From the IMG/VR virus record IMGVR_UViG_2713896785_000025: a DNA stretch of 12,187 nucleotides. One strand, given 5' to 3'. The DNA is from a virus (lineage: Duplodnaviria > Heunggongvirae > Uroviricota > Caudoviricetes). How positions within the stretch are numbered: the first letter of the stretch is position 1; each line of letters starts with the position of its first letter. Below, in pieces: positions 2,600 through 12,187 of this stretch. Made by a program: the position numbers and the translations under genes. The notes beneath the pieces are model-generated. The model saw only the letters and a list, made by a program, of their open reading frames with translations. It was not told the DNA's origin and did not search any database.

Positions 2600-3142
2600 T
2601 TACTCGCCTTTCTTCTGTAGCAACTTTTCCGGTACGTTTCCGGTTGTTTCTTTCAAGTAATCAGCCAGTATCTGTGGGAGGTTGTCGGCAACTCTGGCAC
2701 TGGCATTACAGGCTTTAACCACTTCCCTTTTAAGCCTGTCCAGCATGGCGGGGGGAATCTGTGGGAAGCTCCTTTGCATAGTAAGCGGGAGGATGTCCAT
2801 GATTGATGAAATCTGACTCGCCAGCTTTGAAAGCGCGTACAGGCAAAACTCAGTATCAATCACGTCACCGCGATCGCGATCGTTTTTAAGTTCCTGCGCC
2901 TCTGCCTGTGCTGTCAGTAATCTGATCCTGACTCGTAAAAGTTCATCATCGTCAATCTCGCCTTTGTCGTTTATAAGCTGGCTAATTGCATTGTTAACCC
3001 TATTTTCTATCACGCTGGCAACATCATAAAACGCCTCACGGCCTTTACGCTCAACGGGAGTTACTCCCCACTTGTCGAACGCTGTCGCACTTACACGGCA
3101 GCTTTTCGCCATGTTTTTTTTGTTCATCAGATGAGATTTCAT
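2600..3142 (-). CDS. Terminase small subunit, lambda Nu1-like (180 aa)
   Basis: Blocks shared with lambda Nu1 as recalled: NKK near N-terminus, LT(A/R)AQA(E/D)AQELKN.RD, (E/A)FC..(A/V)LS, ILPL(T/S)(M/V)QR.FP, LKR(E/D)(V/I)(V/I)KA. SD-like GGTG before ATG 3140-3142. Confidence 0.85.
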   Translation of the reverse strand: MKSHLMNKKNMAKSCRVSATAFDKWGVTPVERKGREAFYDVASVIENRVNNAISQLINDKGEIDDDELLRVRIRLLTAQAEAQELKNDRDRGDVIDTEFCLYALSKLASQISSIMDILPLTMQRSFPQIPPAMLDRLKREVVKACNASARVADNLPQILADYLKETTGNVPEKLLQKKGE

Positions 3143-3319: not shown

Positions 3320-3341
3320 AAAAAAGCCGGATTTCTCCGGC
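3320..3341 (-). terminator. Intrinsic terminator (copy 1 of a thrice-repeated motif)
   Basis: Minus-strand RNA: hairpin GCCGGAGAAAUCCGGC followed by U6; 7 nt downstream of stop of gene 3348-3761. Confidence 0.6.
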
Positions 3342-4121: not shown

Positions 4122-5177
4122 TTAACCAATTTTGACGGTAACAAATTTGCGAATATCTGCCGGTACCGGCTGCGGTGCGCTGTGCGTCTGCACGTACTCA
4201 ATCGCCGGATCGCCGTCCTCAATCCAGTTTTTCGGGTAAAACATGTTTTGCGTTGCGCCCGTTCTGACCGCTTCCTGATCCATAATCGCACCATAGGCCA
4301 CCAGCCCTTTATTGTTGGTGTTACCCAGGACCAGCAAATCAGGCTCAAGGAAATATTTTTCGGTGCCGTCGCTGTCAGTGTATTTGCCGGAATAGACGAC
4401 AAGGGCAATATCGCCCAGATAGCCTTTAAAGCTCACCACTTCACCCAGGTTTTTACAGGCCAGTTCTGCGGCGGATTCTGAACCACGGGAAAGGTCGTAC
4501 AGTTCGCGGAATTTTTTAAAGCTGCGTAACGTGCGCCATACTTCAGCGCCCATAATCATGACGTTTGCGGGGCAATTGCCCTGATCAGCATAAAGCTCGA
4601 TGTCATAGATTGGATCGTGTGTTTCTTTATCCAGCTCAGACCATTTTTTACCGTCAGCCTGTTCTATGATATTGCTTTCCGGGATCTTCCAGTCGATTTC
4701 ATAGCGTTCTATGCCTTCGCCCTCAATGAGGTTTTTTCCGGTCGTTACCGCATTCACCGCCAGCCATTCCACGCGTGCCTTAATGGCGTTTATCTGGCGG
4801 CGCATGTTGCCAGTAATCAGGCGCATACGGCGATAGGTAGGATCGTTAAGCTGTGCCGGATCTTCTCCAGCCATGCGCATGATGGTTTTTGTTGGATCGA
4901 TTTCGTGTTTGGGTTTCATGTAGCCTGGTTTAATCGTGCTGGTTTCGTACCCTTTATCGCGCTGGACCTGACTACCCACCATAGGCGAACAGAACGCTGA
5001 CATCGTAACCTCTTCAATGTCCAGGGTGTCCAGCATGATGTTCTGGGTGTTGAAGGTCGCCACGTTCGGGAAAAACAGCGTGGTAAACAGCGGACTGAAT
5101 TTAAATTCTGCAATATCCCCGCGATTCAGGTACGCGAAAAGCTGGTTAGTGTTAAGTGCCGTTGCTTTGCCTGCCAT
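4122..5177 (-). CDS. Major capsid protein, lambda gpE-like (351 aa)
   Basis: Motifs shared with lambda E as recalled: (K/E)FKF.PLF..LFF, PGY(V/M)KPKHE, EDP..L.DP.YRR.R, YSG.Y, YPKNW...GDPA, SAP. Strong SD GGAGGTGA; start overlaps upstream stop (TAATG). Confidence 0.9.
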   Translation of the reverse strand: MAGKATALNTNQLFAYLNRGDIAEFKFSPLFTTLFFPNVATFNTQNIMLDTLDIEEVTMSAFCSPMVGSQVQRDKGYETSTIKPGYMKPKHEIDPTKTIMRMAGEDPAQLNDPTYRRMRLITGNMRRQINAIKARVEWLAVNAVTTGKNLIEGEGIERYEIDWKIPESNIIEQADGKKWSELDKETHDPIYDIELYADQGNCPANVMIMGAEVWRTLRSFKKFRELYDLSRGSESAAELACKNLGEVVSFKGYLGDIALVVYSGKYTDSDGTEKYFLEPDLLVLGNTNNKGLVAYGAIMDQEAVRTGATQNMFYPKNWIEDGDPAIEYVQTHSAPQPVPADIRKFVTVKIG

Positions 5178-5383
5178 TATTCACCTCCATGCGTCTGATT
5201 CATGCCCAGCGCCGCGCGTAAATAGGCGCGGACCTGCCAGCCTGTTGACGGCTCAACCATCGCCAGCGGATCAAGTCCTGCCGCAATGCCTGCTTTTACG
5301 TTCTGCTGGTGGCGTTCCTTGAGCGCCTTCACGATGTCGGGGCTTATGTACACCGAAACACCGCCTTTTTTCTCTTCAGCCAT
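5177..5383 (-). CDS. Hypothetical protein (68 aa), first gene of capsid operon
   Basis: ORF with SD AGGA 7-9 nt upstream of ATG; stop overlaps MCP start codon. Confidence 0.6.
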   Translation of the reverse strand: MAEEKKGGVSVYISPDIVKALKERHQQNVKAGIAAGLDPLAMVEPSTGWQVRAYLRAALGMNQTHGGE

Positions 5384-5439
5384 AGTAAGAAATTCCTCTT
5401 CGACTTAAAAAATCATAACTGGATGTTTATCCAGTCCTG

Positions 5440-5467
5440 ATTATAATCAGAATTGCATTTTATGCAA
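5440..5467 (-). promoter_or_regulatory. Candidate sigma70 promoter for capsid operon (-10 TATAAT, -35 TTGCAT, 16-nt spacer) overlapping palindrome TTGCATTTTATGCAA
   Basis: Minus-strand hexamers read from rc of 5440-5445 and 5462-5467; inverted repeats at 5453-5467 and 5418-5435 (ACTGGAT-GTTT-ATCCAGT). Confidence 0.4.
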
Positions 5468-5548
5468 TGATATTGAGTTATGTTGCAAATTATGAAATGA
5501 TTATCCCGATCACGAACGCCAGTGCATCCAAAAACCTCATATGCAAAA

Positions 5549-5586
5549 GCCCGATAAGAACCCTCTGACCTTATCGGGCTTTTTTT
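5549..5586 (+). terminator. Hairpin plus T7 (10-bp stem GCCCGATAAG/CTTATCGGGC); strong on + strand, weaker on minus
   Basis: Perfect 10-bp inverted repeat with 11-nt loop followed by TTTTTTT on + strand; A-run on other side gives U4 on minus strand. Confidence 0.5.
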
Positions 5587-5592
5587 GGGCGC

Positions 5593-5614
5593 AAAAAAGC
5601 CGGATTGCTCCGGC
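5593..5614 (-). terminator. Intrinsic terminator (copy 2 of repeated motif)
   Basis: Minus-strand RNA: hairpin GCCGGAGCAAUCCGGC followed by U6; about 20 nt downstream of gene 5635-5859. Confidence 0.6.
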
Positions 5615-5634
5615 TATGTGTGCTGTGTGCTGGC

Positions 5635-5859
5635 TCAGTCTCTGATCTCTTTCAGAAATTCTATCAATGCATCTATCTGTTCAGGATTTACCGCCAGCAT
5701 TTCACCGGATAGAGCACATCTCACAAAACCATGCTGATCCTTTTCAATCAGTGCGCCCGTCTCCAGGAATGCGCGGTAATCATTGATGCTCATCGTCTCC
5801 ATGTTGTCAGCATGGTATTTATCACGCTGTTTTAATATCTCATCAAATTTCATCGGCAT
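5635..5859 (-). CDS. Hypothetical protein (74 aa), terminator-insulated cassette
   Basis: ORF with SD AGAGGA 9 nt upstream of ATG; no recognisable motif. Confidence 0.6.
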   Translation of the reverse strand: MPMKFDEILKQRDKYHADNMETMSINDYRAFLETGALIEKDQHGFVRCALSGEMLAVNPEQIDALIEFLKEIRD

Positions 5860-5955
5860 TGTTTTTTTCCTCTGTTGTGTCTGTTTGTTTCAGATAGTAA
5901 CTATGCCTGACCGTGACGAAAACCCGGTAATGCGCCATACCGTTTCAACTGGTGC

Positions 5956-5978
5956 AAAAAAAGCCGGATTTCTCCGGC
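5956..5978 (-). terminator. Intrinsic terminator (copy 3 of repeated motif)
   Basis: Minus-strand RNA: hairpin GCCGGAGAAAUCCGGC followed by U7; 8 nt downstream of stop of gene 5986-6258. Confidence 0.6.
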
Positions 5979-5985
5979 TGTTTGA

Positions 5986-6258
5986 TTAGCTGTCCTGGTA
6001 ATTGCGCCATATTTCATCACCAGCACCATCTATACCCATTTCGGCATAAGTGCGATCGACTGCCTTTTTCAGGTCTCCGAAATTATCCGGCGGCTCCGGT
6101 GCCCTCTGTGCCTTCCTTGAACATTCCAGCCGTCGCATCGTGATGTGATGCCGTTCCTTGTCTGTCTCCACCAGCTGCATGACTTCACCCCATCGCGCCG
6201 CCGCCCTCCGGTAAAAGCCTTTCGCCTCCAGTTCCTCCGCTATGCGGTCATGTACCAT
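5986..6258 (-). CDS. PerC-family transcriptional regulator-like protein (about 90 aa; start refined from the 130-aa track ORF)
   Basis: N-terminal motif D.IAEELEAKGFYRRAAARW typical of the PerC/Pch family as recalled; internal ATG at 6256-6258 has SD GAGGGGG 5 nt upstream, and the SSB stop codon lies within that SD. Confidence 0.6.
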   Translation of the reverse strand: MVHDRIAEELEAKGFYRRAAARWGEVMQLVETDKERHHITMRRLECSRKAQRAPEPPDNFGDLKKAVDRTYAEMGIDGAGDEIWRNYQDS

Positions 6259-6268
6259 CGTCACCCCC

Positions 6269-6679
6269 TCAGAACGAAATATCATCACCGTAAGGGTCAT
6301 CGCCTCCCGCTGGTGGCTGATTACCCTGTGTGCCTGTGGTTTTGCGTCTGTTCCCGCCTGGACGTGCCGCGCGGGCACTGATTACGCTGTCTGCGATAAC
6401 CTGCCAGCCCTGCCGCGTTTCTCCGTTCTGTCCGGTCCACTGGCTTACCTGCATCGTGCCGGATACGCTGGCAACATCGCCTTTTTGATGTTTAGCCAGG
6501 AAGTCGGCCTGTTTGCCAAATGCGATGACCGATAACCATAACGTCGCCTGTCCGTCCTGTGCCTGGCTGCATGGCAAAGATACCGCCATACGCGCCAGCG
6601 TCATCGGTGTGCCCTTGCTGGTCTGTTTTACCTGCGGGTCGTCCACCAGCCGCCCGTAAGCGGCTATCTGTGCCGTCAT
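6269..6679 (-). CDS. Single-stranded DNA-binding protein homolog (136 aa)
   Basis: OB-fold blocks align with E. coli SSB as recalled (GRL..DP, FGK.A, W..Q.G..R); Gly/Gln-rich linker; acidic C-terminal tail GDDISF (host tail is DDDIPF). SD GGAGAGGTGG; ATGA overlap with upstream gene. Confidence 0.8.
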   Translation of the reverse strand: MTAQIAAYGRLVDDPQVKQTSKGTPMTLARMAVSLPCSQAQDGQATLWLSVIAFGKQADFLAKHQKGDVASVSGTMQVSQWTGQNGETRQGWQVIADSVISARAARPGGNRRKTTGTQGNQPPAGGDDPYGDDISF

Positions 6680-6927: not shown

Positions 6928-6939
6928 TTCTCGCAACCT

Positions 6940-7130
6940 CTCACTTTTTCGCCTCACTTTTTCAAGCGTCTCACTTCGTCGCAGTTGGGATTTTCGGTTT
7001 TTCTATGTGTGTGTTTCATAAGTATTTTTTTACCCCTCACTTTTGAGGATGTATACAGGTCGAAAAGTGAGGGAGAGCGGGCTAATTTTGGCCCTCTTTC
7101 TATCCCCCTCGCTTTTGCTCCTCACTTTTA
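6940..7130. repeat. Iteron array / candidate origin of replication (CTCACTTTT repeats, one inverted) with AT-rich tract
   Basis: CTCAC(T)4 at 6940-6949, 6953-6962, 7036-7045, 7121-7130; variants at 6970-6978 and 7108-7117; inverted copy AAAAGTGAG at 7063-7071; AT-rich stretch 7001-7034; immediately downstream of replicase gene. Confidence 0.6.
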
Positions 7131-8528
7131 TAGCGGCGCTACATCATCCCCATCGATACGAATAACCCCATCTTTTTCCAGCTTGTACAGCCAGCGCCGG
7201 AAGTTTTTCATTTCATACCCCAGCTTTTTCATGTCATCACGTAACAGCGGGATCGTGCACTTGTCGCCGTTCTGTGTGCGTGAACGGATGCACCCCCATA
7301 GCGCGGTATGGTTTTCCGTCTTGTTCCCTGCCTCCTCGATGCGCTCCAGTTCAACAGGAGGGCGCGGATCATCCACCACCACCAGCGACGTGATTAATTC
7401 ACCGTCAGCGTCGGTAAAAAGCTCCACCACGCGTAAGTCATATGCGGCTTCTTTGAGTTCCTCCGCGTCCTTCATTTTGGTGCATGAGATAACCAGCGCT
7501 TCGCTTCCTGCGTCCTCCCTGCGTATCCGGTATTCAGCATCCAGCGAAGCACGAAATGCACTGGAACCGCGCGCGCCTTTCGTCTCATCCTTGCCGGAAT
7601 GGTGAACCACCAGCACCGTGGCCCCTGTGCGTCGTTTCAGTTCGTCACAACCACGGATAAACGCCCCCATATCACGGGAATCATTTTCATCATTCCCACC
7701 AAAGCAACGCGCCAGCGTATCCAGAATAATCATGCGTACAGGTTTACCCGTTTCCCGCTCCACCTGACGGGCAGCGATAACCATTTCATCAACATCAAGC
7801 GGGGCAGCCGGAAAGATGGGGCGGTTTACCAGATACAGATTTTTCACCTGCTCATCGTGCACAACCTCCCAGGCTTTTACACGACGCGGAACACCTATAC
7901 CGCCTTCACCAACCACATAGAGAACCGCACCATGTGCAACCCTGCGGCCTCCCCACTGGCGACCAGTGGCAACATGGCACGCCCACGATCCGGCAAGGAA
8001 TGATTTATAGGACCCGCTAGCCCCGTATATGCTGCATAGCGATACCGCCGGAATAATCCCCTTAACCACGTAATCCAGTTGCGTGTCGTATCCGGTAGAT
8101 CCAACGCTCATCGGTAGCGTGGTTTTTCGCTGGTGGTTTTTTTCTTCCGCCGGCTCTTTCCCGCGCACCCGTTCCAGGTATTCGCGCCAGTTCTCCCGCA
8201 TATGGCTGTGCATCCCTTCGGGGTAATAATTCGCATCAGTTACACCCGCCGCCGCCAGCTTGTGCGCAATGGCATTAATATTTGATGGCCTGATGTGGCC
8301 TGCCTTGTACAGCCGGACACAATAGCGCCCCTCGTCGATGATTCTCAGGTCTGCCAGTTCATCCAGTTGATCATCAGCCAGCACAACGGGAGGCACATTA
8401 TCGCCAGCCAGTCGCCCGTCCTGTTCCTGCCACTGTTTCGCATGTGCCCAGGCATCACTACCCGCAAAAATAATGACTTCGGTCATCTTGTCGTAAGGCT
8501 GTTTTTTTAAGTTCGGTGCGCTTTTCAT
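7128..8528 (-). CDS. Replication protein: RecA-like AAA_25 ATPase/helicase-type replicase with N-terminal possible Toprim/primase-like domain (466 aa)
   Basis: Walker A GASGSYKSFLA...HVATG, Walker B-like MIILDTLARCF, HHSGKDETKG motif; SD AGGGG; start overlaps upstream stop (ATGA). Confidence 0.85.
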   Translation of the reverse strand: MKSAPNLKKQPYDKMTEVIIFAGSDAWAHAKQWQEQDGRLAGDNVPPVVLADDQLDELADLRIIDEGRYCVRLYKAGHIRPSNINAIAHKLAAAGVTDANYYPEGMHSHMRENWREYLERVRGKEPAEEKNHQRKTTLPMSVGSTGYDTQLDYVVKGIIPAVSLCSIYGASGSYKSFLAGSWACHVATGRQWGGRRVAHGAVLYVVGEGGIGVPRRVKAWEVVHDEQVKNLYLVNRPIFPAAPLDVDEMVIAARQVERETGKPVRMIILDTLARCFGGNDENDSRDMGAFIRGCDELKRRTGATVLVVHHSGKDETKGARGSSAFRASLDAEYRIRREDAGSEALVISCTKMKDAEELKEAAYDLRVVELFTDADGELITSLVVVDDPRPPVELERIEEAGNKTENHTALWGCIRSRTQNGDKCTIPLLRDDMKKLGYEMKNFRRWLYKLEKDGVIRIDGDDVAPL

Positions 8529-8871
8529 TTCTTGCCCCTGAATCCGTTAATCATGGTTTTCAGCTTCTGGATGTTTGCCCGTGCCCTGGCGTTGCTGGTG
8601 GGCACGTTATGCGGCGCGGTCTGTACCAGAGAAAAATCACGCCGGAACTGATAAACAGGCATCACGCAATCATATTCGTAACCTTCACGNNNNNNNNNNN
8701 NNNNNNNNNNNNNNNNNNNNNNNNNNNNNNNNNNNNNNNNNNTGATTTTTGTTTGTCGCGTTCATTGTCGCCAAGTGTTTCAAGCCATATGCGCAATATT
8801 TCCAGCATGTTTTCACTGTGAGAAAGTGCAAGAAATGCGCGGTCTATTGTTTGGTGGTAAATATCACGCAT
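8525..8871 (-). CDS. Hypothetical protein interrupted by assembly gap (N-terminal 43 codons 8743-8871; C-terminal 54 codons 8528-8689 plus stop 8525-8527)
   Basis: Both fragments are open right up to the gap edges; ATG 8869-8871 with SD GAGGA; C-terminal frame ends with TGA overlapping replicase ATG. The stated gap length (53) is not a multiple of 3, so continuity is unproven. Confidence 0.45.
8690..8742. other. Assembly gap (53 N)
   Basis: Run of n characters in the sequence. Confidence 1.
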
Positions 8872-10865: not shown

Positions 10866-10910
10866 TTGTTCGTGGTTGTTCCACGTTGTTTCACATTGTT
10901 CGCCGTTGTA
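10866..10910. repeat. Five phased direct repeats TTGTT at exact 10-bp intervals
   Basis: TTGTT at 10866, 10876, 10886, 10896 and TTGTA at 10906; adjacent 16-bp perfect palindrome CAGTATGCGCATACTG at 10925-10940. Confidence 0.55.
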
Positions 10911-10957: not shown

Positions 10958-12187
10958 TTATTTTCTTCTGGCTGCTGGTAGTGCGGTTACGTTTTCATGT
11001 GTTCCCGCCAGTATCCCTAACCGCTCCATCCACATATCCAGCGCATTGCGTTTAGCATCCAGATAACGGGAATGATTATAAACTCGCTGCATTCCTGGCA
11101 TCTGGTGGCCTGTAAGCTGCTCCACGACGTGAGGATCCACGCCTAAATCGCTCAGCATCGTTGTAAAGGTGCGCCGGATGTCATGTAGTGACCAGTGAGG
11201 GTGATTTAGCCTCCTGTGCGCTAATCTGCCGTACTGCGACACGCTTGTTTCCTGTTTCACTTCCCCCAGCAATAAGCCCGTGTGCCTGTTCTGCTCCACC
11301 AGCTGCGTGACGAACGGCAGTATTGCTTCCGGTATGGGCCGGAATATTGCCACCTTCGTTTTGCTGTGTTCTTTCGGCACGGTCCAGAGCATTTCGGTAA
11401 AATCCCACTCGCTGATCTCCGATAACCTCAGTTCTACCGTCCGGCATCCGAACACAATCAGGAGGCGGATTAACGCGATGTAGTAGGGGGAGAATATTTT
11501 TTTGTCCAGTGCCTGCAATAATTCGCCCAGTTCTTTGGTGCTTAAGACACGCTCGCTTATATCCGGTTTTTTCCCAACGTCCGCCACACTCATATCATCA
11601 AGAACGTTGCTGATTGCATAGCGCCGCCTCCGGCAGAACTTAAGCGCCTGTTTGCACGTCTGTAGCAAGAATCCGGCAGTAACAGGCGTTCGCTTTGCCA
11701 CCTGGTCAAAACAGGCCAGCCAGTGCCGTAGCTCGCATTTATCCAGCGGCATAGCACCAATGTGCTGTATTACGTGATTATTAAGGCGCTTTTTCAGGGC
11801 GGCATAATCCACGCGGTTTTCCTTTGCGTACGACTCAAGCCAGTAGGTGAGCGCATCGCCAACCGTTACCGGCTTTAACGCTTCCTGTACGGTGTAATTA
11901 AGCTCATGACGTGGATTTTTCCCCTCTGCCAGCCATGCGCGACACTGGGCGGCTTTTTCCCTGGCTGATTTCAGGCTCAGATCAGGATAATTTCCCAGCT
12001 TAATGCGTTCCGGTGGTGCCCCCCTTCCCGTTCCGGCCCTGTAAGTGAAATACCAGGTTAAAAGGCCACTGGTTGAATGCCTGACGCTCAGGTTTCCACC
12101 GTCATTAAGAAAGGCTGTTTTTTGGGCGGGTGTGCCGTTGATTTTCCTCAGCTGTGTATCGCTCAGTTTGTTAAGTGCTCTGCTCAT
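10958..12187 (-). CDS. Tyrosine recombinase / integrase, P4-like family (409 aa; start codon at the window edge, so the 5' end could be truncated)
   Basis: N-terminal arm-binding-type region; catalytic-domain motifs GCRTVELRL, HDIRRTFTT, LTGHQ...VYNHSRY (R, H-x-x-R, Y). Confidence 0.92.
   Translation of the reverse strand: MSRALNKLSDTQLRKINGTPAQKTAFLNDGGNLSVRHSTSGLLTWYFTYRAGTGRGAPPERIKLGNYPDLSLKSAREKAAQCRAWLAEGKNPRHELNYTVQEALKPVTVGDALTYWLESYAKENRVDYAALKKRLNNHVIQHIGAMPLDKCELRHWLACFDQVAKRTPVTAGFLLQTCKQALKFCRRRRYAISNVLDDMSVADVGKKPDISERVLSTKELGELLQALDKKIFSPYYIALIRLLIVFGCRTVELRLSEISEWDFTEMLWTVPKEHSKTKVAIFRPIPEAILPFVTQLVEQNRHTGLLLGEVKQETSVSQYGRLAHRRLNHPHWSLHDIRRTFTTMLSDLGVDPHVVEQLTGHQMPGMQRVYNHSRYLDAKRNALDMWMERLGILAGTHENVTALPAARRK

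Follow-up and report, generated by a model that had tools for sequence, protein, structure and literature searches.

A probable satellite-specific accessory gene between the replication and capsid modules of Escherichia coli phage-inducible chromosomal islands

Introduction

Phage-inducible chromosomal islands (PICIs) and capsid-forming PICIs (cf-PICIs) are intensively studied drivers of gene transfer that also carry defence systems. He et al. (2024; PMC11364771), from the Penadés group, described Tai systems in an accessory region located downstream of pri, and accessory or immune genes are already expected in this slot (PMC11364771; bioRxiv 10.1101/2025.02.11.637232). Here, we analyzed a 74-aa open reading frame (ORF) at positions 5635-5859 of a 12,187-nucleotide stretch of DNA (hereafter the window; IMG/VR record IMGVR_UViG_2713896785_000025, Caudoviricetes), which represents an EcCICFT073-like PICI inserted between phoQ and roxA. 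An uncharacterised satellite accessory gene at a mid-island slot is an already known kind of feature. Our analysis adds a conserved family found only in satellites, a predicted fold without a known relative, and, in E. coli, units bounded by a reused terminator.

Ppi and PtiA/M of the pathogenicity islands found in Staphylococcus aureus (SaPIs) are small interference proteins that are encoded between ori and the packaging operon and bind helper-phage proteins. The 74-aa protein is their positional and conceptual analogue, being likewise small, satellite-specific and encoded after the origin, although SaPIs are Gram-positive elements and the likeness is one of position and concept. The Tai and Ati proteins of PICIs share the island region downstream of pri and before the packaging module, and AtiEcA of phi80 is similarly small (76 aa). 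These families nevertheless belong to different PHROGs, namely 1957 for the 74-aa family, 20632 for Ati and 5483 for Tai, with a 170-aa cargo protein of other genera in 5789. A Tai/Ati identity was rejected on sequence grounds, as hhalign comparison of the family with AtiEcA (phi80 orf64), using one representative per family, gave a probability of 0.4%; TaiEcA (phi80 orf63, 204 aa) is set apart by size and PHROG rather than by direct alignment.

The Rpp proteins of E. coli PICIs, which bind the helper TerS (Fillol-Salom et al. 2019; PMC6739421), are encoded by the same kind of island. However, they are winged helix-turn-helix (HTH) proteins of 144-153 aa encoded at the far end of the packaging module, and the model of the 74-aa protein matches no solved structure, a set that would include RppC. 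The Rpp counterpart in the window is likely the Nu1-like 180-aa gene at 2600-3142. Lambdoid prophage morons, gene units flanked by a promoter and a terminator, resemble the present case in consisting of a single extra gene bracketed by terminators, in their clean presence or absence in collinear elements, and in having junctions at terminators. In contrast to morons, the 74-aa gene resides in a phage satellite, is co-oriented with both flanking operons and has no strong sigma-70 promoter, and its family occupies a single fixed slot across genera, with no member among the phage genomes searched. The PerC/Pch regulators, carried by the same islands, are represented by the neighbouring unit, which is likewise optional and has the same terminator at its end, whereas the 74-aa protein has no PF06069 match and occurs in many genera without perC.

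By gene order, the 74-aa gene is gene 1785 of the prototype cf-PICI EcCIEDL933, located directly upstream of the capsid gene 1786. Its identification with the "hypothetical gene 1792", the deletion of which lowers transfer, was rejected, given that 1786 encodes the capsid protein and 1792 is therefore a 60-aa ORF between HNH and TerS. Gene 1785 is not among the EcCIEDL933 genes reported as mutated, and no study of it was found in the searchable literature.

A conserved gene and its protein family

The ORF runs from ATG (5859-5857) to TGA (5637-5635) on the minus strand, as do all of its signals; the initial annotation, which had described a terminator-insulated single-gene cassette, gave no strand. 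Its length alone carries no weight, with 94 ORFs of at least 40 aa in the window. That it is coding is shown by purifying selection and by its membership of a conserved protein family. The ratio of nonsynonymous to synonymous substitution rates (dN/dS) is 0.10-0.13 across three E. coli and Shigella alleles, with dS of up to 0.37, and 539 of the 541 E. coli genomes with a match carry the ORF at full length. The claim that the gene has its own Shine-Dalgarno (SD) sequence also stands: reading the minus strand, we found AGAGG at 5869-5873, within an SD region at 5866-5873 and separated from the ATG by a 9-nt A-rich spacer.

A word-indexed homology search reached only E. coli copies (at least 91% identity) and fragments, and an exhaustive HMMER search was needed to detect relatives. 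Against 1.84 billion representatives, this search yielded 21 matches at E <= 0.001, which comprise about 17 distinct relatives of 66-106 aa with 30-43% identity, the others being fragments of the E. coli protein and one spurious match, a 1383-aa repeat protein (P0019) that was dropped. A profile search gave 41 clusters, of which all those named by organism derive from E. coli, Klebsiella, Citrobacter, Ewingella or Arsenophonus, and all are named "hypothetical". PHROG 1957, whose function is not assigned, was matched by 18 of 18 aligned members. In the alignment, Y28 and Q61 are invariant, and the motifs D-x-H-G-F, S-G-E and A-x-N-x-E-Q-x-D-x-L-I-E-x-L are conserved, with Y28, D41, H43, G44, S51-G52-E53 and E60-Q61-x-D63 as the conserved polar residues; the alignment contains no conserved stretch of 7-10 columns. 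Net charge ranges from 0 to -10 in the family, all but one member being negative, and the isoelectric point from 4.6 to 6.7. The 74-aa ORF encodes a real, small, acidic, cytoplasmic protein.

A chance ORF or decaying remnant left between two terminators would be consistent with the shortness of the ORF, with its annotation as "hypothetical" in every database, and with its being missing from the prototype island. This explanation has virtually no chance of being correct and is already refuted by the low dN/dS, the conserved motifs in a family spanning several genera, the confident predicted fold described below, the SD and conserved leader, and the full length retained in nearly all matching E. 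coli genomes. A further ORF in the vicinity is the 42-aa coding sequence called by the Prokaryotic Genome Annotation Pipeline (PGAP) at 5901-6029 (minus), which overlaps the end of perC and its terminator and is named "hypothetical protein" or, in O157, "trigger factor, frameshifted"; it is probably spurious.

Structure prediction, which had been proposed as a check in the initial annotation, was carried out with AlphaFold2 (AF2). The single-sequence model was poor, with a predicted local distance difference test score (pLDDT) of 52.9, and the model based on the family alignment was used instead; it is confident, with a pLDDT of 91.6 and a predicted template modelling score (pTM) of 0.74. The predicted fold combines three short helices and a sheet of three strands with a C-terminal helix, with no match among PDB chains or viral structures. 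In the model, the conserved polar residues sit at beta-turns and at the start of the last helix and likely form a surface patch.

Searches of Pfam and NCBIfam gave no significant match for the 74-aa protein, with no HTH or other domain and no match to PF06069 (PerC family), and none of the defence-protein hidden Markov model families of PADLOC-DB v2 matched at E <= 0.1. Weak Pfam matches to DUF7189 (E 0.0098) and PDF2_C were rejected, since they appeared in only 2 of the 18 members and below the gathering threshold. In PDB sequence searches, only a marginal match was obtained, between the sheet-plus-helix segment and the D1 subdomain by which N.BspD6I recognises DNA (E 2.3e-4 for the whole sequence, 0.12 per domain); a winged-helix fold was not recovered in the structure comparison of the AF2 model. 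Homology to a structural or housekeeping protein, which would have spoken against the initial annotation, was looked for and appeared in neither the sequence nor the structure searches. Rfam contains no RNA family matching positions 5100-6400.

A slot between replication and packaging modules

The family was found only in PICI and cf-PICI satellites of Enterobacterales and Gilliamella, and tblastn against 50,697 phage genomes gave no family match. IMG/VR contigs carrying the family are mostly 10-17 kb, the size of satellites, and all informative contexts have the order int, alpA, replicase, family gene and then capsid genes. We annotated 90 loci, obtained from look-ups of encoding contigs and from IMG/VR, against a reference set; these loci are not independent samples. 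In 88 of the 90, the gene lies downstream of the replication module or origin and upstream of the packaging module: on its upstream side it adjoins a replicase, ssb, perC or some other small replication-side gene, and its downstream neighbour is a capsid gene, the small leader gene of the capsid gene, or a cargo gene on the opposite strand. The distance from replicase to gene is usually 140-540 bp, corresponding to the origin. The distance from gene to capsid is 110-2195 bp, a spread due to insertions of unrelated cargo, which are common there and frequently lie on the opposite strand; this cargo comprises unrelated proteins of 170, 205, 145, 139 and 230 aa.

Relatives with 30-48% identity retain the same slot in combination with four replicase families and three capsid modules. 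A single E. coli allele precedes either an HK97-type cf-PICI module or a lambda-E-type module and follows either RepA or a DUF927 replicase; in O157:H7, a copy with 98.7% DNA identity is located between perC and the HK97-type capsid gene of an EcCIEDL933-type cf-PICI. The Gilliamella member (41% identity) is flanked by a Toprim primase with GGTGAACA iterons on one side and by an HK97 capsid module on the other, those of Klebsiella (33-34%) follow a D5 or DUF927 primase and precede an HK97 capsid module or a ClpP-capsid fusion, and those of Citrobacter and Ewingella (45-47%) follow RepA. When related cf-PICIs were retrieved with the capsid protein as seed, four of five contained the gene, and the remaining one, from Erwinia psidii, carries two cargo genes on the opposite strand in its place. 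The slot shows no cargo-like turnover, as the family persists across genera while the neighbouring cargo changes. The family is therefore a conserved satellite gene bordering a mid-island variable region, not typical turnover cargo. Overall, a genuine satellite-specific accessory gene occupying the replication-capsid slot is highly probable. Such a conserved, satellite-only small protein beside a mid-island hot-spot also offers a well-defined, inexpensive subject for testing by deletion and expression.

Several further observations were made on individual loci. Equivalents of the iterons described below, GGTGAACA and AAGTGCGGC, directly precede the family member in loci L004 and L005. In 14 loci of Citrobacter, Klebsiella or Ewingella type (L010-L013, L034-L038, L043, L046, L047, L049, L050), a convergent 170-aa gene (PHROG 5789) is found 38-46 bp away with any replicase type, and the two genes may form a module that is not obligatory. 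The 170-aa neighbour was rejected as an obligate partner, given that near-identical alleles occur with and without it and that it was not found in E. coli; TaiEcA showed no BLASTP similarity to this cargo protein. In Arsenophonus nasoniae (L014, L015; CP123539.1, CP038627.1), a cf-PICI-like set, from the HK97 capsid gene through TerL with primase and replicase, forms a separate 16-kb replicon, in which the family member follows TerL rather than preceding the capsid gene. The Klebsiella cf-PICIs L007-L009 adjoin prophage terminase genes, with a cut Terminase_4 gene just before the integrase and, in L008, TerL fragments on both flanks; they fit the "helper-embedded satellites" of bioRxiv 10.1101/2022.07.18.500453.

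Terminator-bounded units in E. coli islands

The gene was found in 541 of 5,426 complete E. coli genomes (~10%), mostly of serogroups O157, O145, O26 and O103 and mostly from enterohaemorrhagic or Shiga toxin-producing E. coli (EHEC/STEC). In the window, it follows perC, as had been stated, and the perC terminator separates the two: the perC stop at 5986 is followed on the minus strand by an intrinsic terminator at 5956-5979 (AGCCGGAGAAATCCGGCT + T6), whose hairpin at 5962-5979 (7 bp, 5 of them GC) precedes T6 at 5956-5961 and folds at -13.5 kcal/mol (z = -2.3). We refer to this terminator as copy A of the reused hairpin.

The two terminators that the initial annotation had placed between the gene and the capsid promoter were likewise recovered, both on the minus strand. 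The proximal one, at 5593-5615 (AGCCGGAGCAATCCGGCT + T5), has a hairpin at 5598-5615 of -15.9 kcal/mol (z = -3.45) that none of 200 shuffled sequences equalled in folding; it is a 23-of-24-nt direct repeat of 5956-5979 and is the copy found after perC in CFT073 and FORC_069. The distal hairpin, at 5545-5586 (GCCCGATAAG...CTTATCGGGC), has 15 bp and folds at -23.8 kcal/mol (z = -4.4), flanked by A7 at one end and by T4 at the other. With only T4 behind it on the minus strand, as against T7 on the plus strand, it is bidirectional and the better terminator in the antisense direction, and it belongs to the CFT073-type capsid-operon leader, outside the cassette. Terminator-like matches are not strongly enriched across the window (21 found versus 13.7 +/- 3.4 expected); the upstream hairpin and both downstream hairpins are individually strong and conserved in related islands.

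Comparison of islands with and without the gene locates the joints. In CFT073, 27 bp replace window positions 5634-6034 and the gene is absent. In the FORC_069 cf-PICI, which also lacks it, perC and its terminator are joined straight to the capsid leader that follows the gene in O157. EDL933-type islands contain the gene, and in locus L098 it accompanies a CFT073-type perC. Some islands have neither perC nor the gene, and the same hairpin then follows ssb. Every junction is the hairpin GCCGGAG[A/C]AATCCGGC with a T-run, and the Megablast breakpoints among E. coli islands, at window positions 5585-5594 and 5958, fall on copies of it. This hairpin follows ssb (L032, L033), perC, the 74-aa gene and the capsid operon, and the window contains three copies, the third at 3326-3341 (minus) after the 137-aa gene that closes the capsid operon. 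A degraded island in Shigella flexneri (L019, 4173-4349) was also observed, in which a fusion joins the initial 25 codons of ssb to the final 29 of a CFT073-type perC and the 74-aa gene downstream is intact.

The optional E. coli unit consists of the leader, the gene and the terminator, stacked behind perC, with each unit ending in the same hairpin. Recombination between copies of the terminator hairpin would explain the gain and loss of units, and the hairpin has the appearance of a portable terminator doubling as a recombination joint. Such reuse would illustrate in concrete terms how islands with different packaging strategies exchange optional units. Terminators like those of E. coli are not present at the family members of other genera, and terminator insulation is a trait of the E. 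coli lineage, not of the family. The description of the gene as a cassette is thus borne out for the terminator-bounded E. coli unit, but not in the sense of randomly swappable cargo, as the slot is kept across genera.

Leader and expression

The 96-nt leader between the upstream terminator and the ATG contains no sigma-70 site matching at 9 or more of 12 positions in the promoter scan. The initial annotation had proposed an independently expressed accessory gene; the accessory, modular nature of the unit is upheld by islands with and without it and by the hairpin junctions, while independent expression finds no support in the scan. The best candidate by eye is TTTTCG-17-TACTAT, which was not called by the scan and agrees with the consensus at 7 of 12 positions; its -35 (5917-5922) and -10 (5894-5899) lie in the proximal leader (5874-5922, minus), which is conserved. 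Between alleles with a dS of 0.30, the 54 nt from the candidate -35 to the SD differ at 1 position, compared with 18 of 222 in the coding sequence. The distal leader (5923-5955, minus), which contains a weak hairpin at 5925-5942, is more variable, with 7 differences over its 33 nt.

The leader travels together with the 74-aa gene, and its conservation favours a cis element, which is not proof of a promoter. On the sequence, a weak or regulated promoter of its own and read-through from perC are each plausible. Transcription would probably start from a weak conserved promoter in the leader or, upon helper induction, come from transcripts that partly read through the perC terminator.

Possible roles of the protein

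The reading we tentatively prefer, at somewhat less than an even chance, is that the 74-aa protein is a protein-binding conflict factor, as suggested by its sequence features and predicted model. Such a protein would bind another protein, not DNA, and would have no catalytic role. Its target would likely be a helper-phage, competitor-phage or host factor, much as SaPI Ppi/Pti, Rpp and Ati have targets in their own systems. By interfering with or hijacking the helper, or by counter-defence, it would shift the balance of the conflict between satellite, phage and host. It would not be a core component of replication, regulation or packaging. A core role in replication, late regulation or packaging is argued against because a single allele is found with two packaging modules, and two leaders, that are unrelated to each other, because the family pairs with four replicase families, and because islands without the gene are functional, EcCICFT073 being induced, replicated and transferred in its absence (PMC6092414, PMC6739421). 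A protein-binding factor fits the small size, the acidity, the absence of a DNA-binding or enzymatic signature, the satellite exclusivity and the conserved polar residues.

Several points weigh against this proposal. The weak match to N.BspD6I D1 hints in sequence that the protein could contain a wing-like nucleic-acid-binding element, and the conserved His and Tyr could equally line a site for a small ligand. The promoter candidate matches the consensus at 7 of 12 positions only. In addition, the retention of one slot over 30-48% divergence could indicate a semi-core role tied to replication.

The region in which the gene lies corresponds to the "new accessory region downstream of pri" and to the variable region before the packaging operon (PMC11364771; bioRxiv 10.1101/2025.02.11.637232), where a stand-alone, moron-style immunity gene could be expected that is constitutively expressed from the integrated island's own promoter and blocks non-helper or competitor phages, in line with what the Penadés group anticipates for genes on either side of the packaging module. 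The bracketing terminators, the conserved leader with its candidate promoter, and the optional occurrence among E. coli islands agree with such a gene. Nonetheless, we regard it as unlikely: the protein has no PADLOC model match and, by PHROG, no Tai homology, known single-gene PICI immune proteins such as TaiEcA (204 aa) are far larger, the gene is co-oriented with the induced early operon, and hot-spot cargo usually turns over, whereas this family stays put across genera while the adjacent cargo varies. A further alternative is an accessory to satellite replication or recombination, for example an inhibitor of RecBCD or a similar host nuclease that protects rolling-circle concatemers or a modulator of a host replication factor. 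Lambda Gam and T7 gp5.9 are small acidic nuclease inhibitors, which the 74-aa protein resembles in size and acidity. It also lies on the replication side in most loci, 140-540 bp after the replicase or origin iterons as against 110-2195 bp from the capsid gene, it travels with ssb and perC in E. coli, and its pairing with four replicase families would point to a host or helper target. However, the predicted fold resembles no solved structure, a set that would include known nuclease inhibitors, terminators part the gene from the replication genes in E. coli islands, and islands without it replicate and transfer well (EcCICFT073; PMC6092414), which leaves this role quite unlikely.

The position of the gene, always upstream of and co-oriented with the packaging module, might instead suggest an early-to-late switch, that is, an activator, antiterminator or anti-repressor of the packaging operon, and the operator-like palindrome and leader terminator of that operon (see below) call for a regulator. 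We consider such a switch very improbable, as the same allele precedes two unrelated packaging leaders, the CFT073 and FORC_069 islands with identical leaders work without the gene, cargo genes often intervene between gene and operon, and the protein is acidic with no DNA-binding domain.

Returning to the preferred protein-binding conflict factor, a wider and rather doubtful version of the proposal is that PHROG 1957 constitutes a new satellite-exclusive effector family, with a fold absent among solved structures, that is kept at the early/late junction of classical and capsid-forming PICIs and neutralises a widely conserved phage or host protein, the terminator hairpin being the joint by which units are stacked and shed. 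Members of such a family would act in counter-defence, keeping helper tails or satellite concatemers usable, or as a broad interference factor. If the protein is an interference or counter-defence factor, it would represent a new protein family and fold in the satellite-phage arms race.

The surrounding island

The window begins with the 3' part of phoQ (1-1461, plus), and the remainder is the island on the minus strand. In E. coli O103:H2 12009, the same DNA is found between phoQ and roxA, and the arrangement matches EcCICFT073, the prototype of Gram-negative PICIs, whose insertion site in CFT073 is the same (PMC6092414; PMC3378721). The integrase gene is located at 10958-12187, and an AlpA-like HTH gene is also part of the island. 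From there, the gene order is RepA, iterons, a 93-aa ORF, ssb, perC, the 74-aa gene and the capsid operon. The RepA-type helicase is encoded at 7128-8528, and directly after it the CCTCACTTTT iterons (6938-7129), with at least six copies in both orientations, form the presumed island origin. The 93-aa ORF lies between the iterons and ssb (6269-6679). The perC gene (PchE-like; 5986-6258), which is itself an optional unit ending in the same hairpin terminator, encodes a protein matching PF06069 with E 1.2e-42. The capsid operon comprises a 68-aa gene, the lambda-E-type major capsid protein, a gpD-like decoration protein and the 137-aa protein; beyond it, the Nu1-like gene is followed by a 93-aa gene. 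All of these island genes are on the minus strand. Upstream of the RepA gene, part of the sequence is masked by 53 consecutive N (8690-8742), and ORF calls there are unreliable.

The packaging-operon control region (5417-5468, minus) contains the palindrome ATTGCATAAAATGCAAT at 5452-5468 (7-3-7), a -10 TATAAT within 5436-5450 and, at 5417-5436, a leader hairpin with T6 behind it. Candidate promoters for the capsid operon are TTCATA-18-TATCAT, called by the scan, and TTGCAT-16-TATAAT, with its perfect -10 inside 5436-5450. Within the packaging leader (5384-5545, minus), the palindrome is operator-like and overlaps the -35-like TTGCAT, and the hairpin with T6 stands just before the SD of the 68-aa gene. 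By analogy, this layout of promoter and leader terminator recalls lambda PR'-tR', and an antiterminator or activator may be needed.

At the other end of the island, the intergenic region between int and alpA contains TTGTT motifs with 10-bp phasing (10866-10905, plus). A 25-nt stretch of these motifs, TTGTTCGTGGTTGTTCCACGTTGTT, is identical in the leader of the HK97-type packaging operon of an O157 cf-PICI (L003, ~5950-5990, minus), and the leader of a Klebsiella cf-PICI opens with the related TTTGTAAATTATTTGTTCG. These stretches may be shared binding sites for AlpA/Xis or Int.
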